Part shown: positions 2-35,836 of the stretch, piece by piece
How positions within the stretch are numbered: the stretch's first letter is position 1
Layout: every line of letters starts with the position of its first letter
Assembly (NCBI GenBank): GCA_040905185.1
Contig: JBBDRZ010000001.1
Location: forward strand, 115,254-179,253
Origin: Chloroflexota bacterium
GTDB taxonomy: Bacteria > Chloroflexota > Limnocylindria > QHBO01
Direction of reading: 5' to 3'
DNA length: 64,000 nt
The notes under the pieces: generated by a model
What the model was told of the DNA's origin: nothing
Database searches by the model: none
What the model saw: the letters and a program-made list of their open reading frames with translations, nothing else
Position numbers and translations under genes: made by a program

Positions 2-1198
2 GGGGAGGAGGGCATTGGCCTGGATCCGGCGATGCTGGGCCAGCGACGTGATGCGGTCGTGGACAAGATCGTCAAGGGCGTCGAGTTCCTGATGAAGAAG
101 AACGCGGTGACCGTCCTCCGCGGCCATGGGGTTCTAACCGGCCCGACCAGCGTCCGCATCGGTGGCGGCGGCTTGGCCGACGTGGAGGCCAGCGCCACCG
201 ATCTGATCCTGGCCACCGGCAGCGCACCCCGGCCTCTGCCCGGGCTGGAGGCCGACCAGGACCGCGTCATCGACTCTGACGAGGCCCTGCGCCGCGACAA
301 CCTGCCCCGGTCGGTGACGATCGTGGGTGCGGGCGCGATCGGGGTCGAGTGGGCCAGCCTGTATGGCGACCTGGGAGCGGAGGTGCGGCTGGTCGAGTTC
401 ATGGATCGCATCGTTCCACTCGAAGATCCCGACATCAGCAAGGAGCTGAGTCGCCTGTTCCGCAGGCGAGGGATGGCGGTCCACGCCGGGTCCACCATCG
501 ATCCCGTGTCGCTGGAGCGGACCGAGACCGGGATTCGGCACGCGATCGTGGCCAACGACGGAAGCGCGCGGACCGATATCGAGACCGAGTGGATCCTGAT
601 CGCCATCGGCCGCCGACCGGTCACCGAGAACATCGGGCTGGAGCAGATCGGCGGCCTGCGGACGGATCGCGGCTTCGTGCTGGTCGATGACCACATGCGC
701 ACCGGCGTCCCGCACCTGTACGCCATCGGCGACATCGTCCCCGGTTACGCGCTGGCCCACGTGGCCAGTCACGAGGCGATCCTCGCGGTCGAGACCATCG
801 CCGGGCTCGATACCCAGCCATTCCGGATGGACCTCATGCCGCGCGTCACCTTCTGCCGGCCCGAGATCGCCAGCGTGGGCCTCAGCGAGGCGGATGCGGC
901 TCAGCAGGGGCTGGCGGTCAAGGTCGGCAGCTTCCCGTTCCGCGCGCTGGGCAAGGCGACCATCGTGGGCGAGGTTGACGGGTTCGCGAAGTTCGTGGCC
1001 CAGGCGGAGACCGGCCGGCTGCTCGGGGCGCATATCATCGGTCCGCATGCCGGCGACCTGCTGGCCGAGCCCACCTTTGCCCGCCTGGTGGAGGGGACGG
1101 CGGAGGAGATCGCCCTGTCGGTGCACGCCCATCCGACTCTGACCGAGGTCCTGGCCGAGGCCGCCCTGGCCGTCGACGGGGCCGCCCTGCACAACTGA
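2..1198 (+). CDS. lpdA: dihydrolipoyl dehydrogenase (E3), 5'-truncated at window edge
   Basis: Frame of ORF 32..1198 stays open back to nt 2. NAD-binding GxGxxG (VTIVGAGAIGVEWA) and the C-terminal interface region (HAHPTLTE) are typical of Lpd. Confidence 0.85.
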   Translation, partial: GEEGIGLDPAMLGQRRDAVVDKIVKGVEFLMKKNAVTVLRGHGVLTGPTSVRIGGGGLADVEASATDLILATGSAPRPLPGLEADQDRVIDSDEALRRDNLPRSVTIVGAGAIGVEWASLYGDLGAEVRLVEFMDRIVPLEDPDISKELSRLFRRRGMAVHAGSTIDPVSLERTETGIRHAIVANDGSARTDIETEWILIAIGRRPVTENIGLEQIGGLRTDRGFVLVDDHMRTGVPHLYAIGDIVPGYALAHVASHEAILAVETIAGLDTQPFRMDLMPRVTFCRPEIASVGLSEADAAQQGLAVKVGSFPFRALGKATIVGEVDGFAKFVAQAETGRLLGAHIIGPHAGDLLAEPTFARLVEGTAEEIALSVHAHPTLTEVLAEAALAVDGAALHN

Positions 1199-8008: not shown

Positions 8009-9043
8009 ATGTCTCGCGATTTCTCGGACCTGGGCGAGCTGTCGGTCCTGGGCCAGCCCGCCGGTCACGCCGGCCCGTCGGCGGTCATGTACCCCGGTGG
8101 CCCAGACCTGAACAGCGGCATGCCCGCCCCCGGCGAGGCGATCCCCGAGAATGCGGGCCCCGGTGGTCGGCGGCCCGAGTGGCTCAAGGTCCGCCTCGGC
8201 GCCGGGGAGACGTACGCCGGTCTGCGCCGGCTGCTGCGGGACGGGGCGCTCCATACCGTGTGCGAGGAGGCCCGGTGCCCGAACCAGGGGGAGTGCTGGA
8301 CCCTGGGCACGGCCACCTTCATGGTGCTGGGCAGCGTCTGCACCCGGAACTGCGGGTTCTGCGCCATCGAGACCGGACGCCCACGCGAGACGGACCTCGA
8401 TGAGCCGCGTCGGGTGGCGGAGGCCGCGCGGCGCATGGGCCTGCGGCACGCGGTCATCACCATGGTTGCCCGTGACGACCTGCCCGACGGCGGAGCTGGG
8501 ATCGTGGCCGAGACGGTGCGCCACATCCGCCTCGCCTGCCCGGGCACCAGCATCGAGGTCCTGATCTCCGACCTGAACGGGCGCGAGGCCGACATCCGGA
8601 CCGTGGTCGAGGCCCAGCCCGAGATCCTGAACCACAACGTCGAGACGGTCCCGCGTCTGCAGCGACCGGTCCGCCGGCGGGCCCGATGGGATCGCAGCGT
8701 GGGGGTGCTCACCACCGGCCGCCGGCTGGCGGCCGACATCGGTCATCAGATGACCACCAAGACCGGGCTCATGGTCGGCCTGGGAGAAACGTGGGACGAG
8801 GTCACCCAGGCCATGGGCCTGTTGCGCGAGGCCCGGATCGACGTACTGACCATCGGCCAATACCTGCGCCCCAGCCGGTCCCATCTGCCGCTGGTCAAGT
8901 ACTACACACCGGCCGAGTTCATGGCGCTGCGCCGGATCGGGTTGGACATGGGATTCGCCCACGTCCAATCCGGGCCGTTGGTGCGATCCAGCTACCACGC
9001 CGCCGAACAGGTCCCGGGCGGCGACCTGGCGGCCGCCGTCTGA
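8009..9043 (+). CDS. lipA: lipoyl synthase (radical SAM)
   Basis: RPEWLKVRLG...LHTVCEEARCPNQGECW...CTRNCGFC (CxxxCxxC) plus conserved LipA core. ATG at 8009 inside ORF 7853..9043; an alternative start at 8087 (MYPGG) would give a more typical N-terminal length. Confidence 0.85.
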   Translation: MSRDFSDLGELSVLGQPAGHAGPSAVMYPGGPDLNSGMPAPGEAIPENAGPGGRRPEWLKVRLGAGETYAGLRRLLRDGALHTVCEEARCPNQGECWTLGTATFMVLGSVCTRNCGFCAIETGRPRETDLDEPRRVAEAARRMGLRHAVITMVARDDLPDGGAGIVAETVRHIRLACPGTSIEVLISDLNGREADIRTVVEAQPEILNHNVETVPRLQRPVRRRARWDRSVGVLTTGRRLAADIGHQMTTKTGLMVGLGETWDEVTQAMGLLREARIDVLTIGQYLRPSRSHLPLVKYYTPAEFMALRRIGLDMGFAHVQSGPLVRSSYHAAEQVPGGDLAAAV

Positions 9044-24209: not shown

Positions 24210-26267
24210 ATGAGTAGCCGACGACCGCTCGAACCGCCCACCGGATCGAGCGGCTCTCAGGTCGATCCCATGCTCGAGGTGCGCGAGCGGCGCCGCGGCC
24301 AGCGGCCGGGCGACGCCTACGTGCGGATCGTGCGCCCGTTCGAAGACGAATTCGAGCACGGAGACGAAGGTCAGCTCATCGCCTCCGAGAAAACGCTTGG
24401 GCCCGCCCGCGGGTGGAGCGCGACATGGCGCCGTCTCCGCCACGTCCTGGTCGGGCGGCCGATCAGCTCCGAGCACGAGGAGCACGAGCGACTCACGAAG
24501 ACCAAGGCCCTGGCCATCTTCAGCTCCGACAACATCAGCTCCAGCGCCTACGGCCCAGAGGAGATCATGCGGGTCCTGGCCCTTGCCGGCGCCGGGGCAC
24601 TCACACTGACCATCCCGCTGGCGGGCCTGATCATCGTCACCCTGGCCATCGTGACGATGTCGTATCGGCAGACGATCAAGGCCTACCCGCACGGCGCCAG
24701 CAGCTACATCGTCGCCAGCGACAACCTCGGCGATCGAGCCGGGATCACCGCCGCGTCGGCCCTGCTCATCGGCTATGTCGTCACGGTGGCGGTTTCGATT
24801 TCAGCCGGCGTCGCGGCCATGACCTCCATCCTGCCCGACTTGTACGACACGCGCGTCGTCATTGCGGTCCTCATGGTCGGGCTCCTGATGCTGGGCAACC
24901 TGCGTGGCATCCGAGAGTCGGGGACGATCTTCATGGCGCCGACCTACCTGTACCTGGCGGTCATGTTCGGCATCGTCGGCCTTGGCGTCGTTCAGGCCGC
25001 GACCGGCCAACTGGCGGCTTACGCACCGCCGGCCGACTGGGTCGGGGCTATCGAACCACCGGCCCAGATCCTCGGGTTGTTCCTCATCCTGCGCGCGTTC
25101 TCGCAGGGGGCGGTGGCGTTGACCGGCGTGGAGGCCATCTCGGACGGCGTGCCCGCCTTCAAGCCGCCGGAATGGCGCAATGCGCGGACCACGTTGACCA
25201 CGGCCACCATCATCTTCGGACTCCTGTTCATGGGGATCGCGTTTCTCATCACCCAGCTGGGCATCGTGCCTGACCCGACCGAGCAGCAGACCGTCCTGAG
25301 CGTTCTCGTGCGTCACCTGGTCGGAAGCGGCTGGATCCTGGTCCTGGCCCAGGTGTCCACCGCGTTGCTCCTGGTCCTGGCGGCCAACACGAGCTTTGCG
25401 GACTTCCCCCGACTCTCCTCGTTCCTCGCCCGAGACGGATTCATGCCCCGCCAGTTCGCCTTCCGCGGCGAGCGGCTGGCGTTCACGACCGGCATCTTCG
25501 CGCTGTCGGCCATGGCCGCCTTTCTGATCGTCGTGTTCTCGGCAAGCGTGACCGGACTGATTCCGCTGTATACGCTGGGCGTCTTCGTGGCCTTTACGCT
25601 GTCCCAGGCCGGGATGTTCGTGCGCTGGTATCGGCGCCGCGAGACCGGATGGAGGTTCGGCCTCCCCATTAACGGGCTGGGGGCGGCAACCACGGCCGTC
25701 GTGGCGCTGGTCGTCGGGTCGAGCAACTTCTTCCAGGGTGCTTGGATGGTGCTCGTCCTCGTGCCTGCTCTCATGTTCGTGCTGTGGGCCATTAGGGCCC
25801 ATTACCAGGCCCACGACCGATCCGTCCTGATCGAGAGCATCCCCGAGGGGGCCGAGGCGGCCCGGGAGCCGATCGTCATCGTCCCCATCGCCCGTCTCGA
25901 CCGGCCCGCGCTGGCGGCCATCGCCTTTGCCAACTCCATCAGTCGCTCCGCGAGCGCGGTTCATGTCACGAACGATCCCGCCGCGGCCGAGGAGATGCGG
26001 CGGCGCTGGCCGGAATGGGCCGGCAAGACCGAGCTGGTCGTGGTCGAATCGCCGTATCGGGCCTTGATCGGGCCGCTGGTCCGCTACATGGACGCGCTAC
26101 AGGCCCAGGCTCCGGATCGACCGATCATGGTCGTCCTGTCAGAAGTGGTCCCCCGCCACTGGTGGGAGAACCTGCTCCACAACCAGACCAGCCTGCGCCT
26201 CAAGCTGCGCCTGTTCGGACGCAAGAACACCATCGTGGCCGACGTGCCGTATCACCGCCCCGACTAG
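24210..26267 (+). CDS. APC-superfamily permease with extended cytoplasmic C-terminal domain
   Basis: 685 aa with about 12 predicted TM helices. N-terminal SSDNISSSAYGPEE motif typical of this APC subfamily. C-terminal soluble domain of about 180 aa. Confidence 0.8.
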   Translation: MSSRRPLEPPTGSSGSQVDPMLEVRERRRGQRPGDAYVRIVRPFEDEFEHGDEGQLIASEKTLGPARGWSATWRRLRHVLVGRPISSEHEEHERLTKTKALAIFSSDNISSSAYGPEEIMRVLALAGAGALTLTIPLAGLIIVTLAIVTMSYRQTIKAYPHGASSYIVASDNLGDRAGITAASALLIGYVVTVAVSISAGVAAMTSILPDLYDTRVVIAVLMVGLLMLGNLRGIRESGTIFMAPTYLYLAVMFGIVGLGVVQAATGQLAAYAPPADWVGAIEPPAQILGLFLILRAFSQGAVALTGVEAISDGVPAFKPPEWRNARTTLTTATIIFGLLFMGIAFLITQLGIVPDPTEQQTVLSVLVRHLVGSGWILVLAQVSTALLLVLAANTSFADFPRLSSFLARDGFMPRQFAFRGERLAFTTGIFALSAMAAFLIVVFSASVTGLIPLYTLGVFVAFTLSQAGMFVRWYRRRETGWRFGLPINGLGAATTAVVALVVGSSNFFQGAWMVLVLVPALMFVLWAIRAHYQAHDRSVLIESIPEGAEAAREPIVIVPIARLDRPALAAIAFANSISRSASAVHVTNDPAAAEEMRRRWPEWAGKTELVVVESPYRALIGPLVRYMDALQAQAPDRPIMVVLSEVVPRHWWENLLHNQTSLRLKLRLFGRKNTIVADVPYHRPD

Positions 26268-26740
26268 GGCAGCGATTCGTCCATCGGTTCGAGCCGGAAG
26301 TAGACGCCGCGCGCCAGGATGTGGCGGCGCGCTGCCCGGTACACGAGGTTGCCGGGGAACGGCTGTTGGTGGGCGGTGGCCAGGATGACGGCGTCCCGCT
26401 CGTCCCCGTCCGCCAGGCCCTCGGCGCGCACCCGATGGCTGATCCCGCTCGGCCTGGCCACCACGGCCTCGCCGGCCGCGGCCAGGTTCCGGGTCCATCC
26501 CACTTCCCCGTTGGGGTGGCCAACGTACCAGCGTCCCCCCACCTCGATCAGGCCCACCAGGACGGCGCGAGGGCGCCGCGTGCGCCGTCCGAGGACGCGC
26601 AGGTCGATCGTGATCCCCATCCCGCCAGCGCGCCACGCCCTTCGGATCAGCGGATCGGTGAGGCGAAGCCAGGCATAGCCCAAGCGCCAGAGCACGCTCC
26701 AGATGCGGGAGGCACGTCGTGCTGGACGGGAGGCTGTCAT
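26264..26740 (-). CDS. DUF385 nitroreductase-family deazaflavin (F420)-dependent oxidoreductase-like protein
   Basis: Internal ATG at 26740 (MTASRP...) within track ORF 26264..26818. GRRTRRPRAVLVGLIEVGGRWYVGHPNGEVGWTRNLAAAGEAVV...ERD matches the Ddn/DUF385 split-barrel pattern. Confidence 0.65.
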   Translation of the reverse strand: MTASRPARRASRIWSVLWRLGYAWLRLTDPLIRRAWRAGGMGITIDLRVLGRRTRRPRAVLVGLIEVGGRWYVGHPNGEVGWTRNLAAAGEAVVARPSGISHRVRAEGLADGDERDAVILATAHQQPFPGNLVYRAARRHILARGVYFRLEPMDESLP

Positions 26741-26756: not shown

Positions 26757-26832
26757 TGGCGCGCCGGGCAGGATTCGAACCCGCGGCCTGGTGGTCCGAA
26801 GCCACCCGCTCTATCCACTGAGCTACCGGCGC
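26757..26832 (-). tRNA. tRNA-Arg (anticodon TCG)
   Basis: Manual cloverleaf: acceptor GCGCCGG/CCGGCGC, D arm GCTC..GAGC, anticodon stem GGTGG/CCACC with loop CTTCGGA, T loop TTCGAAT, discriminator G plus encoded CCA. 76 nt. Confidence 0.8.
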
Positions 26833-26942
26833 ACGATTCACGCTCAAATAGAGCGTAAAAGTCGATGGAGGCTTGACTACAGCGCTGGGAGAGCGTAAAA
26901 CCTGACGCGTCTTCGGAAACCCGTCACGAGGCCTCTCCGGCG

Positions 26943-27887
26943 ATGCGATCTGCCTCCACCGCGCCCATCCTAACCCGCGGCGACCTGGCCGCCAACATCA
27001 CGAGCTACGCCCGCCATCTGCGGGCCGCCAACCTGACGCCGGCCACGCAGCGGACCTATCTGGCGTCTCTGGACCGGCTGGCCCGCTTCCTCGAGGAGCG
27101 CGGGATGCCGACCGACGTCGCCGCCATGCGCCGCGAGCACCTGGAGGCCTTCATCGAGGACCAGCTCGCCCGCTGGAAGCCGGCCACCGCCGCCAACCGC
27201 TACAGCGGCATCCGGCCGTTCTTCACCTGGCTCGTCGAGGAGGGCGAGCTGCGCGAGAGTCCGATGATCCACATGCGCAAGCCGCGCCTGCCCGAGCAGG
27301 CACCCCCGATCCCGTCGGACATCGCCGTCGAGCGCCTGCTGGCTACCTGTGAGGGACCCGGCCTCGCCGCCCGCCGCGACGCGGCTATCCTCCGGACGTT
27401 CCTCGCCACCGGGGCGCGTCTATCCGAGGTCGCCGGTCTGCGCTGGACGCCTGACCCGGCAACCAACGACGTCGACCTGGACGCTGGCGTCATCCGCATC
27501 GTTCGCGGCAAGGGCCAGCGCGAGCGGATCAGCTACCTCTCCGCGAAGGCAGTCAAGGCGATCGACCGCTACCTCCGGGTGCGCCGGACCCACGCCCACG
27601 CCGCATTGCCGTGGCTGTGGCTCGGCGAGAAGGGCCGGCTCACCGCTTCGGGCATCGTGCAGATGCTCAAGCGTCGCTCCCGCGATGCGGGCGTCACCGG
27701 GGTCCACCCGCACTCGTTCCGCCACTGGTACGCCAACGAGGCCCTATCGTCCGGGCTCCAGGAAGGCGAGATCATGGCCCTGGCCGGGTGGACGAGCCGG
27801 GAGATGCTGAGCCGCTACGCGAAGGCTGCCGAGCGCGAGCGGGCGGTCGCCGCCGCGCGACGGGTCAACGTCGGGGATCGTCTGTAA
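26943..27887 (+). CDS. tyrosine-type site-specific recombinase/integrase
   Basis: 314 aa. N-terminal SAM-like domain plus catalytic domain with ARLSEVAGLRW, HSFRHWYA and LSRYAKA (R..HxxR..Y). Confidence 0.85.
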   Translation: MRSASTAPILTRGDLAANITSYARHLRAANLTPATQRTYLASLDRLARFLEERGMPTDVAAMRREHLEAFIEDQLARWKPATAANRYSGIRPFFTWLVEEGELRESPMIHMRKPRLPEQAPPIPSDIAVERLLATCEGPGLAARRDAAILRTFLATGARLSEVAGLRWTPDPATNDVDLDAGVIRIVRGKGQRERISYLSAKAVKAIDRYLRVRRTHAHAALPWLWLGEKGRLTASGIVQMLKRRSRDAGVTGVHPHSFRHWYANEALSSGLQEGEIMALAGWTSREMLSRYAKAAERERAVAAARRVNVGDRL

Positions 27888-28002
27888 CTTCGTCGAGCAG
27901 CTCGGGGTGGCGCCCTCCCGGGAGCACGGACGACTCTGGAGCTCCCCAAAACCCCCAGACTCGTCGAGAACGCGAGAGGTCCAGGGGTGTAGTGTGGTTT
28001 CC

Positions 28003-29211
28003 ATGATTCAACTGCGAACGACTCCCCGCCGTTTCACCGGGGCGGTGGCTGGCGTGGCGTTGCTGCTGGCGGCCAGCGGATGCAGTGCCGCATCGCCATC
28101 GGCCATCTCGAGCAATGCGGCGAGTGCCATCCCTCACGAGTCGTCTTCAGCATCATCGACTCCGGTCGAGAGTACGGCGCCCGTGTGGACCACGACCGGG
28201 AACATGATCGAGGCCCCTGTCGCCAACACCGCGACGCTGCTGTCCGATGGCAGTGTGCTGGTGGCGGGCGGCATCACCATCAGGAGCGGCGAAAGGTTCC
28301 CGGCCTCCGCGCAGTTGTACGACCCCAGCAGCCGGTCCTGGAGCGCCACCGGAAACATGATCGAGTTTTCCCGCTCCGATTACACGGCCACGCTGCTGCG
28401 CGATGGCAAGGTGCTCGTGGCGGGCGGCTACCCCAGCCCACTGGCCTCCGCCGAGCTGTACGACCCCAGCACCGGGTCGTGGACCGCCACCGGCAGGCTG
28501 GTAACGGCCCGCGACCTTCATACGGCCACGCTGCTGCCCGATGGCAAGGTGCTCGTGACGGGCGGCATCGATAGCACCGTGTCCGTGGGCCACGCTGTCG
28601 CCGCCGCCGAGCTGTACGACCCAGCCAGCGGGACCTGGATTCCCACCGGGAACATGGTCCAAGCCCGCGTCTACGACACGGCCACGCTGCTGCTCGACGG
28701 CAGGGTGCTGGTGGCGGGCGGCAGCAGCAGTGGCACCCTCGGCGAGGCGCTGGCCTCCGCCGAGTTGTACGACCCGGCCAGTGGGACCTGGACCGCCAGC
28801 GGGAACATGAACGCGGGCCGGAGCGGTCACACGGCCACGCTCCTCCCCGACGGCACGGTGCTGGTGGTGGGCGGCAGCAACGGCAGCGGCCTACTGGCCC
28901 CTGCCGAGCTGTACGACCCAAGCAGCGGGTCCTGGACCGCCACCGGGGCGATGGTCGAGCCCCGCTACGGTCACACGGCCACGCTGCTGGCCAACAGCAA
29001 GGTACTGGTGGTGGGCGGCAGCGCCGGCCAGGACGCGCTGGCCTCCGCCGAGCTGTACGACCCGCTCAGCGGGTCGTGGACCGCCATCGGGAGCATGACC
29101 GCGGGCCGCAGCGGTCACACGGCCACGCTGCTGGCTGATGGCACGGTGCTGGTGGCGGGCGGGAGCACGCGGGTCGCGGCCGAGCTATACAACCCGGGCA
29201 GCGGGACCTGA
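28003..29211 (+). CDS. Kelch-repeat beta-propeller lipoprotein
   Basis: Start at ATG 28003 (MIQLRTTPRRFTGAVAGVALLLAASGC, lipobox-like). At least seven repeats of ELYDPxSGxWTxTGxMxxxRxxHTATLLxDGxVLVxGG. Confidence 0.75.
   Translation: MIQLRTTPRRFTGAVAGVALLLAASGCSAASPSAISSNAASAIPHESSSASSTPVESTAPVWTTTGNMIEAPVANTATLLSDGSVLVAGGITIRSGERFPASAQLYDPSSRSWSATGNMIEFSRSDYTATLLRDGKVLVAGGYPSPLASAELYDPSTGSWTATGRLVTARDLHTATLLPDGKVLVTGGIDSTVSVGHAVAAAELYDPASGTWIPTGNMVQARVYDTATLLLDGRVLVAGGSSSGTLGEALASAELYDPASGTWTASGNMNAGRSGHTATLLPDGTVLVVGGSNGSGLLAPAELYDPSSGSWTATGAMVEPRYGHTATLLANSKVLVVGGSAGQDALASAELYDPLSGSWTAIGSMTAGRSGHTATLLADGTVLVAGGSTRVAAELYNPGSGT
28440..29200 (+). repeat. intragenic tandem repeats of about 147 bp (Kelch blades; gccgagctgtacgaccc... 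recurring)
   Basis: gccgagctgtacgaccc recurs at about 28454, 28607, 28757, 28901, 29048 and 29177. Confidence 0.7.
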
Positions 29212-29380
29212 TATGCGGCTACCAGCCCAGAACTGACCAACTGGAGTCTGTACGGCAAGGTTCGCAATCGGTCTGACATGGGCTGCCGCGAATGACGACG
29301 CGCAGGAGCCTCCCGACAGCGGAAAACCCGACAGGTTTCGCTCGGCACCCCACGCTCGAGGCACAGCGCTCGGGGGTTTC

Positions 29381-29421
29381 TGGTCCGAAGCCACCCGCTC
29401 TATCCACTGAGCTACCGGCGC
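29381..29421 (-). repeat. partial tRNA-Arg copy (positions 1-41), putative att site
   Basis: Exact 41-bp match to 26792-26832. No T arm or acceptor 3' strand follows. Confidence 0.75.
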
Positions 29422-29446
29422 CGGGGCCGATTGTACCGGCGCCCGC

Positions 29447-34694: not shown

Positions 34695-34980
34695 AGGCAA
34701 CGAGGCGGACCCAGAAGCCGGCGTATCGGAGGCCCTGGGCGGGCCGCCAGGAATGTCTCCCGCGCCTTCGCTGAGGTACTCCAGCGGGCCGGGCTACCGA
34801 GGATCAGGTTTCACGATCTCCGACACTCGGCGGCGACGCTCATGCTGGCTCAGGGGGTCGATCCACGGACAATCATGGAGACGTTGGGGCACTCGCAGAT
34901 CGGTACAACGCTGAACATCTACGCCCACGTTCTGCCCGCGATGCAGCGGGACGCGGCGGATCGGATCGGGCCGCCCTGTT
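34695..34980 (+). pseudogene. 3' remnant of a tyrosine integrase gene (catalytic box II only)
   Basis: Frame translation gives ...AFAEVLQRAGLPRIRFHDLRHSAATLMLAQGVDPRTIMETLGHSQIGTTLNIYAHVLPAMQRDAADRIG with the HxLRH and catalytic Tyr boxes. No N-terminal or core domain upstream (a stop sits at 34692, and the minus-strand RDD gene lies beyond it). Confidence 0.55.
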
Positions 34981-35000
34981 CGGGGGTTAGGACGGGGCTA

Positions 35001-35582
35001 TCAGTAGCGGAGCAGCGTCATCACCGCACCGACGCGGTTGAACATGAGCAGCCCGATCGGCAAGGTGATGATGATCACGCACAGTAACCACGCGACGCCG
35101 AGGTAAATGGCTCCCACCCACCAGCCGACGAAGACGAACCAAAGGGCACGTGCCCACAGTGGGTACTGCTCGACGGTCCCGCCGGTGACGTACGTGACCC
35201 CGTCCCGGATCTCAATCGTGTGCGAGTCCGTCCGCGGCCTCAGGGTGAGAATTACGGGCAGTCGGTTGAAGATCATGAAACCAAGCGGCAGGCCGATGAT
35301 GATGACGCACAGAAAGTACGCAGCGACGATCGCGAGTCCGCTTAGCCACCAGCCGACAAAGATGAACCAAATCGTGCGCACAAAGAACCCCGGACCGGTG
35401 GACCGCTGAATGATGACAACGTTTTGGCTGACATTGACGGTCGGTGGAGCGGTCGGACTGACCGGTGGCGCAGGCGATGGTGAGGTCGGAACGGTGAGCG
35501 GGTCCGGCATCGCTCCGGGCAGCGTCACGTCGGGCGGCTGGATTCCACCCTGGTCCTCCGGGACCCTAGGTTGGTCGGACAT
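35001..35582 (-). CDS. YccF-like (DUF307) inner membrane protein, duplicated domain
   Basis: Two copies of FIFVGWWLSGLAIVAAYFLCVIIIGLPLGFMIFNRLP-like modules. Pro-rich N-terminus. Start proposed at ATG 35582. Confidence 0.6.
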   Translation of the reverse strand: MSDQPRVPEDQGGIQPPDVTLPGAMPDPLTVPTSPSPAPPVSPTAPPTVNVSQNVVIIQRSTGPGFFVRTIWFIFVGWWLSGLAIVAAYFLCVIIIGLPLGFMIFNRLPVILTLRPRTDSHTIEIRDGVTYVTGGTVEQYPLWARALWFVFVGWWVGAIYLGVAWLLCVIIITLPIGLLMFNRVGAVMTLLRY

Positions 35583-35759: not shown

Positions 35760-35836
35760 TGGGGTGGCCTACGGGGCTTGAACCCGTAACCTTCGGAGCC
35801 ACAATCCGATGCTCTGCCAGTTGAGCTAAGGCCACC
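35760..35836 (-). tRNA. tRNA-His (anticodon GTG) with encoded G-1
   Basis: Manual fold: G-1, acceptor GTGGCCT/AGGCCAC, anticodon stem TCGGA/TCCGA with loop TTGTGGC, T arm ACGGG-TTCAAGC-CCCGT, discriminator C plus CCA. Confidence 0.85.

Follow-up and report, generated by a model that had tools for sequence, protein, structure and literature searches.

Integration into tRNA genes is a textbook route by which genomic islands enter chromosomes, and the rule is that the 3′ end of the gene is replaced and the tRNA keeps its own promoter. Another arrangement has been described for the archaeal, SSV-type integrases of the pTN3/TKV4-type elements of Thermococcales, in which the attachment sites of the element (attP) and the chromosome (attB) have the tRNA gene's 5′ half in common, 41 bp in the case of pTN3 (PMC5495485), and in which integration rebuilds a full tRNA that is parted from its original promoter (PMC5495485, PMC8371274). 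This 5′-half situation has been called “seldomly encountered in bacteria” (PMC8371274), a review on which the statement on bacterial precedents made here rests. The present work concerns a stretch of 64,000 nucleotides from a soil Chloroflexota bacterium of the Limnocylindria (GCA_040905185.1, contig JBBDRZ010000001.1, positions 115,254 to 179,253; the whole stretch is referred to as the window), in which a tyrosine integrase gene (int) and a Kelch β-propeller gene lie between a tRNA-Arg(TCG) gene and a second copy of its 5′ half. These features are very probably (at a probability of roughly 0.85) those of a 2,589-bp integrative element, consisting of int and one cargo gene, that was inserted site-specifically in tRNA-Arg(TCG) by its own integrase.

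pTN3 is the closest analog of this element, to which it is similar in the sharing of a 5′ half, in the length of 41 bp, and in the separation of the tRNA from its promoter. However, attP of pTN3 is situated within int, so that integration splits the gene, whereas int of the window is a complete open reading frame (ORF) located 110 bp outside the core; moreover, pTN3 is archaeal, whereas the window enzyme is a bacterial Xer-like simple recombinase. Restoration of the tRNA from a fragment borne on attP and crossover in the anticodon loop are both classical features (PMC7192596, PMC8371274), the latter being covered by the sublocation scheme of Williams (2002) as it is summarized in these two papers, and the configuration filter of Islander admits 5′ fragments upstream of the tRNA (PMC4383910). 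Classical tRNA elements also resemble the window element in having int beside the attachment site (att), an anticodon stem-loop core with a 7-nt overlap, and an attP fragment that restores the target, and they resemble its family in leaving a displaced fragment at the far end and in forming tandem arrays. In contrast, they carry the 3′ part of the gene and the tRNA keeps its own promoter, whereas the window has a replaced 5′ part together with a replaced upstream region.

Organization of the Integrated Element

The features that define the element are the following (strand in brackets).

26757..26832 (−): recombinant functional tRNA-Arg(TCG), detected by ARAGORN; Rfam tRNA score of 68.8 bits against a gathering score of 29; identical at 76/76 positions to the tRNA of the relative L095
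26792..26832 (−): left copy of the 41-bp repeat, equal to tRNA positions 1-41; att core on the int side (repeat search)
26943..27887 (+): simple-type tyrosine integrase of 314 amino acids (aa), with a core-binding and a catalytic domain (Pfam, family alignment)
28003..29211 (+): cargo gene for a 7-bladed Kelch β-propeller with a lipoprotein-like signal peptide (Kelch matches to 1e-47)
29381..29421 (−): right copy of the 41-bp repeat, the displaced host tRNA 5′ fragment, positions 1-41 (repeat search)
29422..29446 (−): native upstream region of the original tRNA, with a TACAAT −10-like hexamer (plus-strand attgta, 29430-29435)

An earlier description, hereafter the sequence-only reading, had listed an intact minus-strand tRNA-Arg(TCG), an exact copy of its positions 1-41 at 29381-29421, and an integrase followed by a Kelch gene about 110 bp past the tRNA. 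All three were recovered independently, the tRNA at 26757-26832 by ARAGORN with the Rfam score given above, the copy by a repeat search, and the two genes by their ORFs and Pfam matches. The segments 26792-26832 and 29381-29421 form a direct repeat that is identical at 41/41 nt with a spacing of 2589, and the likelihood that an exact 41-mer recurs by chance within 64 kb is negligible. Read on the tRNA strand, the repeat begins at the mature 5′ end, spans the anticodon loop (positions 32-38), and ends 3 nt inside the 3′ strand of the anticodon stem. Neither ARAGORN nor Rfam recognized the displaced fragment at 29381-29421 as a tRNA, and no other tRNA-Arg fragment was found within the 64-kb window. 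The segment between the repeat copies holds two genes, int and then the Kelch gene, both on the plus strand, with a gap of 110 bp between the tRNA and int. In GC content and skew, the element does not differ from its flanks.

On the tRNA 3′ side, the element is flanked by a 158-aa ORF, an amino-acid permease, and an α-amylase, and on the far side by a PCC-domain gene and an FtsX/ABC exporter, the native upstream region (29422-29446) lying 25 bp beyond the stop of the PCC-domain gene. The arrangement corresponds to the Islander-type definition (PMC4383910) in that an intact tRNA has a same-strand fragment (1-41) upstream of it, the integrase lies inside the bracketed segment close to one end, and the target is uninterrupted in a relative (L095). 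The same DNA is also present in the Chloroflexota metagenome-assembled genomes (MAGs) GCA_040879065.1 and GCA_040882775.1 and in Logan contigs of SRR27977659-63, and the nearest loci in the genome collection belong to Candidatus Limnocylindria/Limnocylindrales.

The Empty Site and Other Occupants of the Same tRNA Gene

The comparison with related genomes that the sequence-only reading had called for yielded an uninterrupted tRNA-Arg locus in L095 (GCA_050695855.1), a Limnocylindria MAG whose PCC protein is 87% identical to that of the window; homologs of this protein are common among Limnocylindria. The gene order in L095 is FtsX, PCC, 78 bp, tRNA-Arg(TCG), 16 bp, orf157, amino-acid permease, and amylase. 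Neither int nor the Kelch gene is present at this syntenic locus, and the window from which 2,589 bp have been subtracted aligns colinearly with L095 over both flanks, which marks L095 as an empty site.

The sequences upstream of the tRNA and of its fragment indicate which of the two copies is the newcomer. The tRNA of L095 is preceded by CTACAATCGGCCTCG and the displaced fragment of the window by the matching GTACAATCGGCCCCG, the fragment thus retaining the native upstream sequence TACAATCGGCC of L095, and TACAATCGG(C/G)C precedes not only this fragment but also the intact tRNA in L095 and L175 and the displaced fragments in L090 and L093. The working tRNA of the window, on the other hand, is preceded by GAGCGTGAATCGT, which is element DNA. 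Since the native upstream sequence stays with the displaced fragment, the insertion replaced both the 5′ half and the upstream region of the tRNA and displaced the host half with its TACAAT box. The proposal that the functional tRNA now takes its upstream sequence from the element is borne out by this difference between GAGCGTGAATCGT and the native sequence found at L095 and at the displaced fragment. Positions 1 to ~38 of the recombinant tRNA-Arg(TCG) would accordingly derive from the element and the remainder from the host.

These data also bear on the idea that part of the tRNA gene was duplicated locally and independently of the integrase, by segmental duplication or illegitimate recombination, so as to bracket two genes. 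The shortness of the repeat would suit such an event, as would the fact that no circular form has been seen, the contigs breaking at the repeat. Nevertheless, it is contradicted by the existence of the empty site, by the sequence upstream of the working tRNA, which is a module of the element family and not native, and by the recurrence of a 5′-half repeat ending at positions 36-43 at 14 other loci, with different tRNAs and always on the int side, and has to be regarded as extremely improbable.

The same tRNA gene has received other insertions. In L093, a 2.0-kb insert between a 40/41 fragment and the tRNA encodes a PD40/Tricorn-like propeller and an extracytoplasmic function (ECF) sigma factor but no integrase, and its distal-arm sequence and tRNA-proximal module are the same as in the window. 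L090 has three successive 5′ fragments at this locus, the first of which (positions 1-26) lies behind the native upstream sequence, while the last (1-41) has an element-type proximal module before it and the distal arm of another element after it, which is a tandem junction from serial integration; such a junction is identical in sequence to attP. The tandem region of L090 also holds (at 8249-8279) a 5′ fragment of 31 nt that belongs to another variant of tRNA-Arg(TCG) (87% identical) and has its own TACAAT box ahead of it; it may be a host fragment carried from another genome. L175 has kept the native 5′ side of the tRNA, but a prophage with a serine recombinase occupies the tRNA 3′ end: positions 74/75 are followed by the gene for this recombinase (503 aa) and by a run of small ORFs (L175 825-2347). 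Hence, the 3′ end of this tRNA gene serves another, prophage-like element, and the tRNA-Arg(TCG) locus is an integration hot spot.

The Integrase Is a Simple Tyrosine Recombinase of a Mobile Element

The integrase matches the Pfam family Phage_integrase with an E-value of 1.7e-23 at aa 129-297 and carries a SAM-like N-terminal domain at aa 19-101. The residues R159, K190, H257, R260, W283, and Y292 are all present and are invariant in the family alignment, and GC3 (the GC content at third codon positions) of int is 0.90. In its domains and catalytic residues, the protein agrees with the simple tyrosine recombinases, which are composed of a core-binding and a catalytic domain (Smyshlyaev et al., PMC8138268). 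An N-terminal arm-binding domain of the kind that characterizes the λ-type heterobivalent integrases was not found among the Pfam, NCBIfam, and PDB matches, those to XerD, XerA, and gp33 in the PDB comparison running over the whole length of the protein; repeated arm modules do exist and are described below.

The best NCBIfam and PDB matches are to Xer-type enzymes (XerC, XerD, and XerA) and to gp33 of phage Brujita, and among more than 880 homologs at E ≤ 1e-20 many are labeled “XerD” or “XerC” in the source databases. Both the labels and the top matches would fit a housekeeping Xer-type enzyme of chromosome dimer resolution that happens to adjoin a tRNA gene. Yet the integrase scores only 138 and 132 bits against the XerC and XerD equivalogs, far under their cut-offs of 335 and 330, and its gene is absent from the syntenic L095 locus. 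Furthermore, its homologs lie beside many different tRNAs with displaced fragments, at times in tandem arrays, and the integrase clades follow the tRNA target. An identity as a Xer chromosome-dimer resolvase is therefore contradicted, and this explanation deserves next to no credence; annotation pipelines that name such genes “XerC/XerD” mislabel the integrases of mobile elements.

Brujita-type phages encode simple integrases without an arm domain (Lunt & Hatfull 2016, as cited in PMC8138268), which likewise combine a core-binding and a catalytic domain and are enzymes of mobile genetic elements, not Xer proteins. The window integrase is, however, only distantly similar to them, its match to Brujita gp33 (PDB 5vfz; E = 3e-9) being weak and ranking below that to XerD. 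Moreover, both att arms of the present family bear conserved repeated modules, for which a truly arm-less minimal site of the Brujita type would have no need. A viral origin was considered and rejected, as relatives in IMG/VR are at most 40% identical and phage integrases in GenBank at most 37%, and the family does not constitute a known group of phage integrases.

Capture of the tRNA 5′ Half Is the Prevailing Mode of the Family

A profile scan with one genome per species gave 80 loci with a relative of the integrase, from both Chloroflexota and Actinomycetota. A tRNA lies at most 600 bp upstream of int in 73 of these loci, and of the remaining seven, five have int at a contig edge. In 66 of the 73, tRNA and int are on opposite strands, int facing the 5′ end of the tRNA as in the window. 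The classical orientation, with int beside the tRNA 3′ end, is confined to seven (L046, L065, L068, L075, L079, L086, and L087). The targets comprise at least 12 isoacceptor types, including Arg-TCG, Arg-TCT, Arg-ACG, Thr-CGT, Thr-GGT, Ala-GGC, Ala-TGC, Val-GAC, and Val-TAC, in addition to Lys-CTT, Lys-TTT, Pro-TGG, Pro-GGG, Gly-TCC, Gly-CCC, Asn, and Met. The literature searched yielded no paper on this Chloroflexota/Actinomycetota integrase family.

Repeats were surveyed in the 34 loci of the 5′ type with about 10 kb of downstream sequence, and 14 of them have a direct copy of tRNA positions 1 (3 in L025) to 36-43 at a distance of 1.6-10.9 kb beyond int. One of the 14, L085, is a four-fragment array: four successive copies of positions 1-39 (or 1-36) of a tRNA-Pro follow within less than 11 kb beyond int (L085 13185-20663), so that this locus is a tandem array of elements or remnants. 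Together with the tandem junction of L090, it shows that integration occurs serially in the family.

Both modes occur within this one family. Among the seven members in classical orientation, L046 and L087 have a 3′-half repeat, from positions 31/32 to 74/75, and at four further loci (L030, L050, L067, and L082) a 3′-half copy lies on the other side of the tRNA, 5-9 kb away. The tRNA of L050 (1451-20277) is bracketed by elements on both sides, with a 5′-half copy 10.4 kb away on the side opposite to the 3′-half copy; one tRNA can therefore serve both modes at once.

The extent of the repeats delimits the crossover. Identity of the 5′ type ends +4 to +7 from the first anticodon base, that of the 3′ type (L046, L087, L030, L050, L067, and L082) starts −5 to −2 from it, and the sole segment common to both is the 7-nt anticodon loop. 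As the two types overlap only there, the loop is the expected overlap region and the stem provides the inverted core sites. The sequence-only reading had suggested a crossover in the region of the anticodon stem and a duplication of the 5′ half in place of the 3′ end; the former agrees with the shared loop, and the latter holds not only for the window repeat but, in the same geometry, for many tRNAs across the family. The phylogeny of the integrase that it had also proposed was run as a neighbor-joining tree, in which the clades track tRNA identity and the 3′-type loci form two or three subclades nested among those of the 5′ type.

Conserved Modules on Both Attachment Arms

The following features were assigned to the two arms (a strand is given where one applies).

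26838..26862: proximal conserved module at the tRNA 5′ end, with the dyad ACGCTC-N5-GAGCGT (26840-26856) and the first AGAGCGTAAAA (26850-26860)
26873..26901 (+): candidate int promoter, TTGACT (26873-26878), 17 nt, TAAAAC (26896-26901), overlapping the second AGAGCGTAAAA (26890-26900)
29316..29371: distal-arm modules ACAGCGGAAAAC (29316-29327), CCACGCTC (29350-29357), and GGCACAGCGCTC (29360-29371)

Two direct repeats of AGAGCGTAAAA between the tRNA and int (26850-26860 and 26890-26900) had been taken for arm-type integrase sites. The repeats are real, have a third copy (9/11 match) at 29316-29326 in the distal arm, and belong to modules that the family conserves on both arms; however, they are not arm sites of the λ type, since the integrase has only core-binding and catalytic domains. 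The distal-arm modules, which overlap a terminator-like hairpin (29355-29374, plus strand), are found at equal offsets in other elements, including L090 and L093, and the pieces GAGCGCTGTG, GAGCGTGG, and GTTTTCCGCTGT repeat at fixed distal-arm offsets in the window and other elements. An alignment anchored at the 5′ end of the tRNA reveals, in the int-side arm of most Chloroflexota members, two related modules, of which the proximal one is kept across many family members with different tRNA targets. The module of Actinomycetota members, TTTCCGCAGGTCAG, is analogous though not the same, and its inverted partner is found in the distal arm; relatives of the 3′ type keep a counterpart of the proximal module although no tRNA promoter need be supplied there. 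From these patterns, the arm modules were concluded to be conserved att-arm, promoter, or operator modules.

The int-proximal module, read on the int strand, is a candidate σ70-like promoter. The pattern TTGNNN-16..18-TANNN[TC] occurs on that strand in 33 of 64 intergenic regions, as compared to 7.2 ± 2.3 in shuffled sequences and 8 on the other strand. A generic promoter scan did not detect this candidate, as it accepts only T as the sixth base of the second hexamer.

Cargo and Size of the Element and Its Relatives

The Kelch protein consists of seven repeats of ~47 aa. Its start may be GTG 27907, ATG 28003 (the likeliest), or that of the database gene call at 28183; the database call has 342 aa and drops the signal peptide and lipobox that the ORF from ATG 28003 supplies. 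Its N-terminus, MIQLRTTPRRFTGAVAGVALLLAASGC, is by sequence a putative lipoprotein signal that includes a lipobox, and the designation as a Kelch β-propeller lipoprotein agrees with multiple Kelch matches for the propeller and with this predicted signal for the lipoprotein part. A tblastn search of the 80 family loci recovered neither the Kelch gene nor synteny with the window, and the closest homologs, at 73-74% identity, are non-mobile and occur in ordinary chromosomal settings with no integrase; the Kelch cargo is unique to the window element. As a class, secreted β-propellers recur as cargo, with the Kelch protein in the window, the PD40/Tricorn-like one in L093 (9866-11639), which adjoins the ECF sigma factor, and an unclassified one in L047 (14464-15582).

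The cargo of the family is highly diverse. It includes AAA_25 ATPases (L015 and L047), an FtsK/SpoIIIE-like protein (L050), a Rep_trans initiator (L055), a GDSL lipase (L080), and a secreted propeller (L047). The only non-integrase gene common to several elements (five) encodes a small basic protein (50-100 aa) that lacks any Pfam match and is a candidate for a factor of directionality or regulation; the window element does not have it.

Small basic protein, within ~1.1 kb of int: L015 11507-11809; L028 3196-3354; L050 12076-12321; L046 1804-2094; L087 11020-11322

In L178, an integrase 82% identical to that of the window occupies the same tRNA-Arg(TCG), where it belongs to an element of 8.07 kb (L178 4140-12282) that is bounded by a 38-bp 5′ fragment. 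The genes of this element include those for a major head protein of the HK97 type and for a scaffold protein, but none for a recognizable terminase or portal, and the element resembles a capsid-forming phage satellite. In general, close relatives are 8-10 kb in size and carry capsid, Rep, FtsK-like, or AAA_25 ATPase genes, from which it follows that the int-att module serves several kinds of small mobile element. The window unit of 2.6 kb and an int-only unit of 1.6 kb in L025 are the reduced end of this size range.

With Rep_trans, FtsK/SpoIIIE-like, AAA_25, and head or scaffold genes in tRNA-integrated elements of 5-10 kb, some family members are similar to actinomycete integrative and conjugative elements (AICEs) such as pSAM2 and to capsid-encoding satellites. 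The integrases of the pSAM2 type are larger, bind arm sites, and use the tRNA 3′ end. Unlike AICEs, conjugative elements, and satellites, the window element has no Rep, FtsK-like, or capsid gene and none of the other genes just named.

Mechanism, Counter-Evidence, and Present Activity

Insertion by the element's own integrase is the reading favored here because of the empty site in L095, the native upstream sequence before the displaced fragment, and the same geometry at many tRNAs. Briefly, attP would carry tRNA positions 1 to ~41 followed by the element's own upstream DNA, and integration would proceed by conservative site-specific recombination catalyzed by the Xer-like, arm-less tyrosine integrase. 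Strand exchange would take place in the 7-nt anticodon loop (CTTCGGA), which the cleavage positions would be expected to border, the inverted core sites being provided by the anticodon stem, and Int alone may suffice for excision. The working tRNA that results would be a hybrid of an element 5′ half and a host 3′ half, cut off from its native promoter and expressed from the ~110-bp element region that it would have in common with the divergent int promoter. The original host 5′ half, behind its TACAAT promoter, would stay behind at the element's far end as a dead fragment.

Several observations weigh against this explanation. A generic scan of the region supplied by the element found no tRNA-directed promoter, the pattern TTGNNN-N16-18-TANNN[TC] is not enriched on the tRNA strand (8/64 as compared to 7.2 in shuffled sequences), and alignment by eye at the tRNA 5′ end revealed the conserved module but no convincing −10/−35 pair. 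The contigs with this exact integrase all come from one study and are all in the occupied state; the Logan contigs break at the 41-bp repeat (2608 = 2548 + 2x30), as any k=31 assembly would, and are uninformative on circles or empty sites. Among relatives, int has in-frame stops in L028, L014, and L048 and is absent in L093. Finally, only int and the Kelch gene lie between the repeats, with no replication, transfer, or packaging genes, so the window element cannot spread autonomously between cells.

The last two points bear on a further possibility, namely that the locus is an immobile fossil left by internal deletions in a larger satellite-like or AICE-like element, with int surviving by chance or co-opted. 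This possibility overlaps with the favored explanation and differs from it only on present-day activity. The closest integrase relatives do reside in elements of 8-10 kb with head and scaffold (L178), AAA_25, FtsK/SpoIIIE, or Rep_trans genes, int-less or truncated derivatives occur at the same tRNA locus in L093 and L090, and a 1.6-kb unit with int only exists in L025. Against this, int is intact with its GC3 of 0.90 and complete catalytic residues, the displaced fragment is still identical at 41/41 positions though not under selection, every conserved module is retained on both arms, and even a reduced element could still excise and integrate or be mobilized by helpers. A fossil thus remains a tentative alternative, with appreciably less than half of the likelihood on its side.

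For the favored reading of an inserted element, the intact int, the 41/41 identity of an unselected fragment, and the complete arms argue for one that is recent or still competent, as far as this can be judged from sequence. The lack of a transfer function, along with the decayed relatives, points to the direction that such elements take. The window copy is best read as a reduced int-plus-cargo cassette with a complete recombination module. The question of whether it is a degraded remnant or an unusually small element, raised in the sequence-only reading, is thereby narrowed: the element is reduced relative to its 8-10 kb relatives, and its recombination module is intact.

Neighboring Features of the Window

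The 158-aa ORF that adjoins the tRNA 3′ end (26264-26740, minus strand) has no Pfam match and keeps its synteny in L093 and L095; its match to the NCBIfam high-GC deazaflavin-dependent nitroreductase is sub-threshold (30.5 bits against a cut-off of 46.35). Elsewhere in the window, a C-terminal fragment (120 aa) of another tyrosine recombinase, covering the HDLRH ... Y motif region, is encoded at 34725-35087 (plus strand), ~670 bp from the 3′ end of a tRNA-His (35760-35835, minus strand). No fragment of this tRNA-His is present elsewhere in the window, and the recombinase fragment has no tblastn similarity to the integrase of the Arg element. It is probably the remnant of a classical 3′-side element.

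Implications for the Family

The integrase family to which the element belongs is large, apparently undescribed, and uses 5′-half capture routinely. A more ambitious joint reading, for and against which the odds appear evenly balanced, is that the window element would be the smallest intact member of a large undescribed Chloroflexota/Actinomycetota family of integrases without an arm domain, whose default is to capture the tRNA 5′ half together with the upstream region. The expression of many, often single-copy, host tRNAs would then depend on an element module shared with the int promoter, the family would flip to use of the 3′ end because crossover at the anticodon stem-loop is symmetric, and the dyad modules on both arms would be accessory sites of a kind new to simple recombinases.

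The family offers a natural system for element-supplied tRNA expression, for structured arms that go with an integrase lacking an arm-binding domain, and for switching between 5′ and 3′ capture, and the int-att unit, compact at 2.6 kb, is a candidate module for integration in phyla of high GC content that are poorly tractable. The main value of the locus is that it exposes a large bacterial family in which 5′-half capture is the norm, replacement of the 5′ half being the majority mode of these integrases in two phyla and at a dozen or more tRNA species.

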